A stretch of 64,000 nt of DNA from Escherichia coli (GCF_003334785.1 NZ_QOWV01000011.1); one strand, 5' to 3'. Shown: positions 9,379 to 62,917, counted from the stretch's first letter. Program-made: numbers and translations. The notes: generated by a model not told the origin, from the sequence alone.

Positions 9379-10518
9379 ATGAGCGCGGGAAGCCCAAAAT
9401 TCACCGTTCGCCGCATTGCGGCTTTGTCACTGGTTTCGCTATGGCTGGCAGGCTGTTCTGACACTTCAAATCCACCGGCACCGGTCAGCTCCGTTAATGG
9501 CAATGCGCCTGCAAATACTAATTCTGGTATGTTGATTACGCCGCCGCCGAAAATGGGGACGACGTCTACAGCGCAGCAACCGCAAATTCAGCCGGTACAG
9601 CAGCCACAAATTCAGGCTACTCAACAACCGCAAATCCAGCCAGTGCAGCCAGTAGCTCAGCAGCCGGTACAGATGGAAAACGGACGCATCGTCTATAACC
9701 GTCAGTATGGGAACATTCCGAAAGGCAGTTATAGCGGCAGTACCTATACCGTGAAAAAAGGCGACACACTTTTCTATATCGCCTGGATTACTGGCAACGA
9801 TTTCCGTGACCTTGCTCAGCGCAACAATATTCAGGCACCATACGCGCTGAACGTTGGTCAGACCTTGCAGGTGGGTAATGCTTCCGGTACGCCAATCACT
9901 GGCGGAAATGCCATTACCCAGGCCGACGCAGCAGAGCAAGGAGTTGTGATCAAGCCTGCACAAAATTCCACCGTTGCTGTTGCGTCGCAACCGACAATTA
10001 CGTATTCTGAATCTTCGGGTGAACAGAGTGCTAACAAAATGTTGCCGAACAACAAGCCAGCTGCGACCACGGTCACAGCGCCTGTAACGGTACCAACAGC
10101 AAGCACAACCGAGCCAACTGTCAGCAGTACATCAACCAGTACGCCTATCTCCACCTGGCGCTGGCCGACTGAGGGCAAAGTGATCGAAACCTTTGGCGCT
10201 TCTGAGGGGGGCAACAAGGGGATTGATATCGCAGGCAGCAAAGGACAGGCAATTATCGCGACCGCAGATGGCCGCGTTGTTTATGCTGGTAACGCGCTGC
10301 GCGGCTACGGTAATCTGATTATCATCAAACATAATGATGATTACCTGAGTGCCTACGCCCATAACGACACAATGCTGGTCCGGGAACAACAAGAAGTGAA
10401 GGCGGGGCAAAAAATAGCAACCATGGGTAGCACCGGAACCAGTTCAACACGCTTGCATTTTGAAATTCGTTACAAGGGGAAATCCGTAAACCCGCTGCGT
10501 TATTTGCCGCAGCGATAA
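9379..10518 (+). CDS. nlpD: Lipoprotein NlpD (LysM plus degenerate M23 peptidase domain), 379 aa
   Basis: Lipobox LWLAGCS; Q/P-rich repeat [25 protein letters not shown]; M23-like C-terminal region. Confidence 0.95.
9980..10008 (+). promoter_or_regulatory. Candidate major rpoS promoter inside nlpD (-35 TTGCGT, 17-bp spacer, -10 TATTCT)
   Basis: Hexamers read directly; predicted start is about 566 nt upstream of the rpoS ATG, matching the long rpoS 5' UTR as I recall it. Confidence 0.55.
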
Positions 10519-10580
10519 ATCGGCGGAACCAGGCTTTTGCTTGAATGTTCCGTCAAGGGATCACGGGTAGGAGCCACCTT

Positions 10581-11573
10581 ATGAGTCAGAATACGCTGAA
10601 AGTTCATGATTTAAATGAAGATGCGGAATTTGATGAGAACGGAGTTGAGGTTTTTGACGAAAAGGCCTTAGTAGAAGAGGAACCCAGTGATAACGATTTG
10701 GCCGAAGAGGAACTGTTATCGCAGGGAGCCACACAGCGTGTGTTGGACGCGACTCAGCTTTACCTTGGTGAGATTGGTTATTCACCACTGTTAACGGCCG
10801 AAGAAGAAGTTTATTTTGCGCGTCGCGCACTGCGTGGAGATGTCGCCTCTCGCCGCCGGATGATCGAGAGTAACTTGCGTCTGGTGGTAAAAATTGCCCG
10901 CCGTTATGGCAATCGTGGTCTGGCGTTGCTGGACCTTATCGAAGAGGGCAACCTGGGGCTGATCCGCGCGGTAGAGAAGTTTGACCCGGAACGTGGTTTC
11001 CGCTTCTCAACATACGCAACCTGGTGGATTCGCCAGACGATTGAACGGGCGATTATGAACCAAACCCGTACTATTCGTTTGCCGATTCACATCGTAAAGG
11101 AGCTGAACGTTTACCTGCGAACCGCACGTGAGTTGTCCCATAAGCTGGACCATGAACCAAGTGCGGAAGAGATCGCAGAGCAACTGGATAAGCCAGTTGA
11201 TGACGTCAGCCGTATGCTTCGTCTTAACGAGCGCATTACCTCGGTAGACACCCCGCTGGGTGGTGATTCCGAAAAAGCGTTGCTGGACATCCTGGCCGAT
11301 GAAAAAGAGAACGGTCCGGAAGATACCACGCAAGATGACGATATGAAGCAGAGCATCGTCAAATGGCTGTTCGAGCTGAACGCCAAACAGCGTGAAGTGC
11401 TGGCACGTCGATTCGGTTTGCTGGGGTACGAAGCGGCAACACTGGAAGATGTAGGTCGTGAAATTGGCCTCACCCGTGAACGTGTTCGCCAGATTCAGGT
11501 TGAAGGCCTGCGCCGTTTGCGTGAAATCCTGCAAACGCAGGGGCTGAATATCGAAGCGCTGTTCCGCGAGTAA
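10581..11573 (+). CDS. rpoS: RNA polymerase sigma factor sigma-S (sigma-38), 330 aa, intact
   Basis: Start set at the ATG giving [21 protein letters not shown]... (ORF track starts 36 nt upstream); sigma-70 family regions 2-4; codon 33 is GAG (Glu), no internal stop. Confidence 0.95.
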
Positions 11574-62844: not shown

Positions 62845-62917
62845 AAAAAGGCCACTCGTGAGTGGCCAAAATTTCATCTCTGAATTCAGGGATGATGATA
62901 ACAAATGCGCGTCTTTC
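62845..62917 (-). ncRNA. micA: MicA (SraD) small regulatory RNA, about 73 nt
   Basis: Minus strand reads GAAAGACGCGCATTTGTTATCATCATCCCTGAATTCAGAGATGAAATTTTGGCCACTCACGAGTGGCCTTTTT, matching MicA including its terminator hairpin and U-run. Confidence 0.92.

Follow-up and report, generated by a model that had tools for sequence, protein, structure and literature searches.

The window, the whole stretch of 64 000 nucleotides that was analysed, is a segment of the Escherichia coli chromosome with the same gene order as K-12 and an orientation opposite to that of the K-12 map. On the plus strand it carries truD, surE/umpG, pcm, nlpD and rpoS in this order, followed by ygbN on the minus strand. The products of the two genes examined here were identified by comparison with NCBIfam profiles. 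NlpD matched the equivalog NF008123 with 678.7 bits (cutoff 311), and RpoS matched the equivalog NF004207 with 604.6 bits (cutoff 394), residues 1-329 aligning with profile positions 1-329, as well as TIGR02394 with 480.7 bits (cutoff 378.7). The rpoS reading frame consists of 330 uninterrupted codons, with neither a premature stop nor a frameshift, and at least 1000 contigs encode exactly the same RpoS protein, under the name 'MULTISPECIES RpoS [Enterobacteriaceae]'. The features of the region are collected in Table 1. All coordinates of the original description were confirmed: its first position, 9980, opens the hexamer TTGCGT, and its last, 10679, closes codon 33 of rpoS.

Table 1. Features of the nlpD-rpoS region, in coordinates of the window
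Feature	Position	Strand	Basis and remarks
nlpD CDS, 379 aa	9379-10518	+	ORF list; contains PrpoS and the larger part of the rpoS leader
PrpoS -35 hexamer TTGCGT	9980-9985	+	Sequence and conservation; 3/6 to TTGACA
PrpoS -10 hexamer TATTCT	10003-10008	+	Conservation; 4/6 to TATAAT; encodes NlpD Tyr-Ser
Main rpoS mRNA start (inferred)	10014	+	10581 - 567; published site transferred by coordinate
rpoS 5' untranslated leader, 567 nt	10014-10580	+	From the literature start; first 505 nt overlap the nlpD CDS
(AAN)4 motif AACAACAAGAAG, upstream Hfq distal-face site	10385-10396	+	Direct read; role from PMC3458560
A6 tract (AAAAAA), second upstream Hfq site	10409-10414	+	Direct read; role from PMC3458560
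sRNA pairing hub, also cis antisense arm of the inhibitory stem (predicted)	10454-10502 (-127 to -79 from ATG)	+	Duplexes
Hairpin between nlpD and rpoS, inside the inhibitory stem (predicted)	10522-10554	+	MFE fold and compensatory changes
Ribosome-binding region, 3' arm of the inhibitory stem (predicted)	10563-10592	+	SD AGGAG 10569-10573, AUG 10581-10583
rpoS CDS, 330 aa and stop, intact	10581-11573	+	ORF; ATG at 10581, stop ends at 11573
rpoS codon 33, GAG (Glu), natural-isolate state	10677-10679	+	Sequence; MG1655 has C at 10677; census

The start of the PrpoS transcript has been placed within nlpD, 567 nt upstream of the rpoS ATG (PMC10948607, PMC8545128 and PMC6582626, all secondary sources), and the intragenic promoter is described as the main promoter of rpoS (PMC10948607, PMC8545128). 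The original prediction, which put the promoter inside nlpD, the start at about 10015 and the leader at about 566 nt, agrees with the position obtained by transferring the published distance to the window. The hexamers TTGCGT and TATTCT, separated by a spacer of 17 nt, match the sigma-70 consensus at 7/12 positions. A consensus scanner detected no promoter site at the 9/12 threshold between 9200 and 11 700, and sites at 7/12 were not enriched on the plus strand of nlpD, where 6 were seen compared with 7.7 ± 2.8 in shuffled sequences. The real rpoS promoter is known to be weak, and for this reason a match at chance level does not exclude that the hexamers belong to PrpoS. It does mean, however, that the promoter is not 'predictable' from the consensus, and that its placement comes from the literature and from conservation. 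The word 'predicted' in the earlier description could therefore not be upheld: it restates where the promoter has been published to lie and does not predict it from the sequence.

For the cross-species comparison, one genome per species was scanned with a degenerate pattern for the rpoS N-terminus and the 750 nt upstream of it were extracted. The resulting alignment, anchored on the rpoS N-terminus only, contained the window and 98 species of Enterobacterales (99 sequences), ranging from Escherichia to Photorhabdus, Yersinia, Serratia, Erwinia, Pantoea and Dickeya. Five positions of the -10 hexamer were invariant in all 99 sequences and the remaining one was kept in 91, the synonymous positions 10005 and 10008 included. 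The GTTG of the -35 region (9979-9982) was kept in 96-98 of the 99, again including a synonymous site, the third position of a Val codon (9981), and the segment CGTATTCTGA (10001-10010) was essentially invariant. Altogether the degenerate third positions of the codons for Val (9981), Thr (10002), Tyr (10005) and Ser (10008) were invariant or nearly so, and those of Val, Thr and Ser are fourfold degenerate. These sites lie in the low-complexity linker of NlpD, where the conservation of other third codon positions was 0.3-0.48, and 0.36-0.48 for those flanking the hexamers. Among five candidates with equal consensus scores in the aligned region, invariant synonymous -10 positions were observed only at TTGCGT/TATTCT. 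In the column of 10011, at -3, the base varied freely among species (G 43, A 33, T 22). Judged by this alignment, PrpoS is conserved beyond coding constraint, and cross-species conservation singles out the site independently of the consensus.

A second island of conservation, AAAATGTTGCC, was seen at 10036-10046, corresponding to +23 to +33 of the leader, where it encodes K-M-L-P in the NlpD linker. Its synonymous positions vary by 15-25%, and its conservation may, at least in part, act at the protein level. The island resembles a half-site for ArcA (TGTTA), and ArcA is reported to bind PrpoS.

Two other explanations of the promoter data have to be weighed. Most rpoS transcription could come from promoters upstream of nlpD, giving a bicistronic nlpD-rpoS mRNA, with TTGCGT/TATTCT a chance match. 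The chance-level consensus score of the internal site would agree with this, and such a bicistronic transcript has indeed been reported, at a low level, in exponential growth (PMC10948607). The same published work, together with PMC8545128, nevertheless gives the intragenic site the role of main rpoS promoter, and a chance match does not account for synonymous -10 and GTTG positions that are invariant in 99 sequences within a poorly conserved linker, so that we consider this explanation very improbable. To a constraint of some other kind acting on 9979-10010, such as one on a conserved NlpD peptide or on an RNA element within the nlpD mRNA, we give still less credit. Conservation alone does not reveal whether an element acts as DNA or as RNA, and the nearby K-M-L-P island does look at least partly protein-driven. 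Constraint on the peptide, however, cannot explain the invariance of the fourfold-degenerate positions of Val, Thr and Ser, and the hexamers with their spacing fit a sigma-70 promoter whose start falls where experiments put it (PMC10948607, PMC8545128). An intragenic PrpoS thus remains the preferred reading. As a point of method, this promoter is invisible to a consensus scan, yet evident from the invariance of synonymous sites across Enterobacterales.

The leader downstream of this start contains the elements expected from the published rpoS system. The (AAN)4 motif and the A6 tract, both read directly in the window, are the Hfq sites reported to be required for the action of DsrA and RprA (PMC3458560), and, as in that system, the leader would be the target region for sRNA/Hfq control, as had been claimed for it originally. 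Pairing was computed with the sequences of DsrA, RprA, ArcZ and OxyS taken from the MG1655 record. When whole sRNAs were paired with the whole leader, or full sRNAs were scanned in windows, the energies were the same as those of shuffled sequences; the matches in the full-sRNA duplex scans fell on the terminator stems of the sRNAs, and these scans were set aside. With the terminators removed, the top predicted sites of DsrA, RprA and ArcZ all fell on one hub. The best site of DsrA, 10454-10482, had an energy of -26.7 kcal/mol compared with -17.4 kcal/mol for the next best. The best sites of RprA (10463-10486, -20.9 kcal/mol) and ArcZ (10472-10502, -24.6 kcal/mol) were followed by next sites only 0.2-1.2 kcal/mol behind. 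The pairing analysis that had been suggested as a check therefore gave a clear answer for DsrA, and for RprA and ArcZ a preference for the hub by slim margins. Conservation at third codon positions rose to 0.97 within 10461-10488, which, read from the alignment, marks a function at the RNA level that overlaps the 3' end of the nlpD coding sequence. A search of Rfam returned no family for the leader; its matches in the window were limited to three tRNAs and the sRNA MicA (RF00078, 83.9 bits), whose gene at 62846-62917 on the minus strand is flanked by luxS and gshA, the arrangement of K-12.

Folding of the segment 10431-10610 gave a minimum free energy of -54.3 kcal/mol (z = -2.2), and in this model the sRNA hub pairs with the ribosome-binding site and the AUG. 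The positions 10563-10568, 10574-10580 and 10581-10592 are predicted to pair with 10457-10487. The folding energy of the full leader, taken over 597 nt, was ordinary (z = -1.2). RNAalifold applied to fixed windows from -170 to +30 missed the long-range stem owing to intergenic insertions of 60-130 nt in several genera, and the pairs were instead counted on a specified structure. In 69 species 88% of the cells for the pairs of this structure held standard pairs, compared with at most 41% when the partners were slid, a control that favours the structure since it was derived from the window sequence. The stem in the ribosome-binding region was paired in 92-99% of cells in the 69 species and its columns were almost invariant; since the arms of this core stem hardly vary, covariation neither supports nor refutes the core pairs. 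The enclosed hairpin (helix 11), on the other hand, showed compensatory changes at 7/7 pairs across the same species. About 20 of these 69 species of Enterobacterales have the additional 60-130 nt, located in the hairpin region between nlpD and rpoS (about 10535-10540) and absent in E. coli. The insertions occupy columns 147-245 of alignment A1, in loci that include L008, L019, L028, L056, L063, L079 and L108, and the hub and the ribosome-binding site beside them stay invariant.

The intact rpoS frame and the GAG at codon 33 were read directly, in accordance with the claim that the gene is full length and has Glu33, neither the amber codon nor Gln. GAG has been described as the usual codon 33 in natural isolates, and TAG, CAG and other variants in K-12 stocks; Glu33 was reported in VTEC and other non-K-12 strains and also in some K-12 stocks (PMC2700278). 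We carried out a census of 5426 complete E. coli genomes by exact matching of 57-mers that have the first base of codon 33 at their centre. Of these genomes 4832 (about 89%) carried the GAG 57-mer, 173 the CAG 57-mer and 121 the TAG 57-mer, where only exact matches are classified and a genome with a further SNP within this segment falls outside all classes. Among the strains listed, all carriers of CAG were K-12 derivatives of the MG1655, BW25113, MC4100 or DH10B type, the carriers of TAG were W3110, EMG2, WG1, J53, NCM3722, HMS174 and similar strains, and the two groups together consisted almost entirely of K-12 laboratory derivatives. Glu33 was also found in other genera of Enterobacterales. 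GAG is the majority state and common to other genera, and can therefore only exclude particular K-12 lineages. The suggestion that the allele is useful for provenance holds as far as the Q33 and amber lineages of K-12 are ruled out by it, and has little value otherwise. One strain in the census stood apart: E. coli BLR(DE3) (NZ_CP020368.1, match H138), an expression strain of the B lineage, carries the K-12 amber (TAG) 57-mer. This fits an import of K-12 DNA along with srl-recA, a neighbouring region some 40 kb away from rpoS.

Comparison of the entire window with MG1655 demonstrated collinearity from 403 to 64 000, with 99.7% identity and 159 mismatches over 59.5 kb (403-59 936). The segment at the luxS-gshA-yqaAB end (59 583-64 000) has one mismatch in 4418 nt, compared with 159 in 59.5 kb elsewhere, and this uneven divergence suggests a mosaic of recombination segments. 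Positions 98-431 hold a type I-E CRISPR array with six repeats GTGTTCCCCGCGCCAGCGGGGATAAACCG and a period of 61 nt, in which the repeat next to iap has one mismatch. Its length and spacers differ from those of the K-12 array at the same position; the difference in spacers follows from the fact that positions 1-402 did not align with MG1655. The serV-arg tRNA cluster (59 488-59 935) contains one tRNA-Ser(GCU) and two tRNA-Arg(ACG), whereas MG1655 has four tRNA-Arg genes (argV, argY, argZ and argQ), and BLAST showed the tandem-unit difference between the two clusters to be ~414 bp.

These observations bear on the possibility of an origin from a K-12 laboratory stock whose amber codon 33 had reverted to GAG, so that the allele would mark a K-12 sub-lineage. 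The Glu33 reported in some K-12 stocks (PMC2700278) would be compatible with such an origin. The window, however, departs from the K-12 laboratory lineage not only in its GAG codon but also in its 159 mismatches with MG1655, in the length and spacers of its CRISPR array and in having two instead of four tRNA-Arg copies. K-12 records were moreover absent among the top matches listed for an adjacent 24.5-kb segment, several natural isolates matching it perfectly, and many natural isolates matched at 100%. A revertant origin, to which we attach practically no credence, was rejected on the SNP comparison with MG1655. The strain is non-K-12, though very similar to K-12 in the window.

The genes and their coordinates, the allele, the identity of the regulatory elements with those of K-12, the conservation of synonymous sites, the predicted fold and the predicted complementarity to the sRNAs, above all to DsrA, are directly supported in the window, and together they outline how rpoS expression could be controlled here. 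RNA polymerase with sigma-70 would start the main rpoS transcript at the weak TTGCGT-17-TATTCT promoter, at about 10014 in the linker-coding part of nlpD, and the transcript would carry the 567-nt leader. The distal part of the leader would fold onto the region of the SD sequence and the AUG and limit translation. Hfq bound to the upstream (AAN)4 and A6 sites would help DsrA, RprA or ArcZ to pair with the distal arm, by which the ribosome-binding site would be freed. According to the literature such pairing also counters Rho-dependent termination in the rpoS leader (PMC6582626), and it would counteract premature termination here in the same way. For the start site, the dependence on sigma-70, the binding of Hfq, activation in vivo and Rho antitermination this outline follows published work on rpoS. 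Since the 330-aa Glu33 frame is intact, the strain is expected to be RpoS-proficient and to belong to neither the Q33 nor the amber lineage of K-12.

We hold with near certainty that the window contains the canonical nlpD-rpoS region, with a weak intragenic promoter, a 567-nt leader that would be controlled by sRNAs and Hfq, and an intact Glu33 allele. The arrangement is the canonical one of E. coli, and its promoter, leader and allele are all already known. The value of the analysis lies in annotation and quality control only, and the textbook paradigm of a promoter within a gene and of a leader regulated by sRNAs is unchanged. For users of the strain it indicates that the general stress response should be functional and that the strain is not a derivative of the MG1655 type (Q33) or the W3110 type (amber). 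A reported consequence of the same nlpD-rpoS arrangement is found in another genus: nlpD of Pseudomonas fluorescens SBW25 is reported to contain an extreme mutational hotspot that is dependent on rpoS being transcriptionally induced (PMC11838912).

The locus was compared in detail with that of known strains. MG1655 (b2742-b2741, rpoSp) has the same gene order, the same gene lengths and the same 567-nt leader length as the window, and between 8000 and 13 000 the two differ by 14 substitutions and no indels. In rpoS, where an alignment with reference alleles had been suggested, the MG1655 frame differs only at 10677, with C for G (CAG, Gln, in place of GAG, Glu, at codon 33), and at 11522, a synonymous SNP (CGT/CGC). 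From 9598 to 10010 the sequences are the same, so the promoter hexamers and the spacer are identical, and from 10420 to 10676 they are again the same, with identical hub, hairpins and ribosome-binding site; the A6 tract is likewise unchanged. Five SNPs lie in the leader or adjoin it: 10011 (-3), 10060 (+47), 10116 (+103), 10398 (+385, adjoining the (AAN)4 motif) and 10419 (+406). Position 10011, which precedes the published start by three bases, is A in the window and G in K-12. The SNP at 10060 falls in the NlpD linker and is the sole non-synonymous difference in nlpD between 8000 and 13 000, the window having GCT (Ala228) and MG1655 ACT (Thr); the others from 10011 to 10419 are synonymous in nlpD. 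Nearly all rpoS regulation was worked out in K-12 strains. The substitution at 10011 and the four leader SNPs, together with Glu33, could shift the set-point of RpoS measurably from that of K-12 strains, but we regard such a shift as unlikely.

No difference was detected from HS, ATCC 8739, ETEC H10407 and many others, which are 100% identical over the 2272-nt nlpD-rpoS segment. W3110, EMG2, WG1, J53 and NCM3722 have the same locus with the same flanks and a stop (TAG) at codon 33, where the window has a sense codon. The elements of the anti-antisense paradigm described for DsrA, RprA and ArcZ on rpoS, namely a distal segment predicted to occlude the ribosome-binding site, predicted complementarity to the sRNAs, which is clear for DsrA and has slim margins for RprA and ArcZ, and the upstream A-rich Hfq sites, are present in the window, and its rpoS leader is itself the type example of anti-antisense activation by sRNAs.
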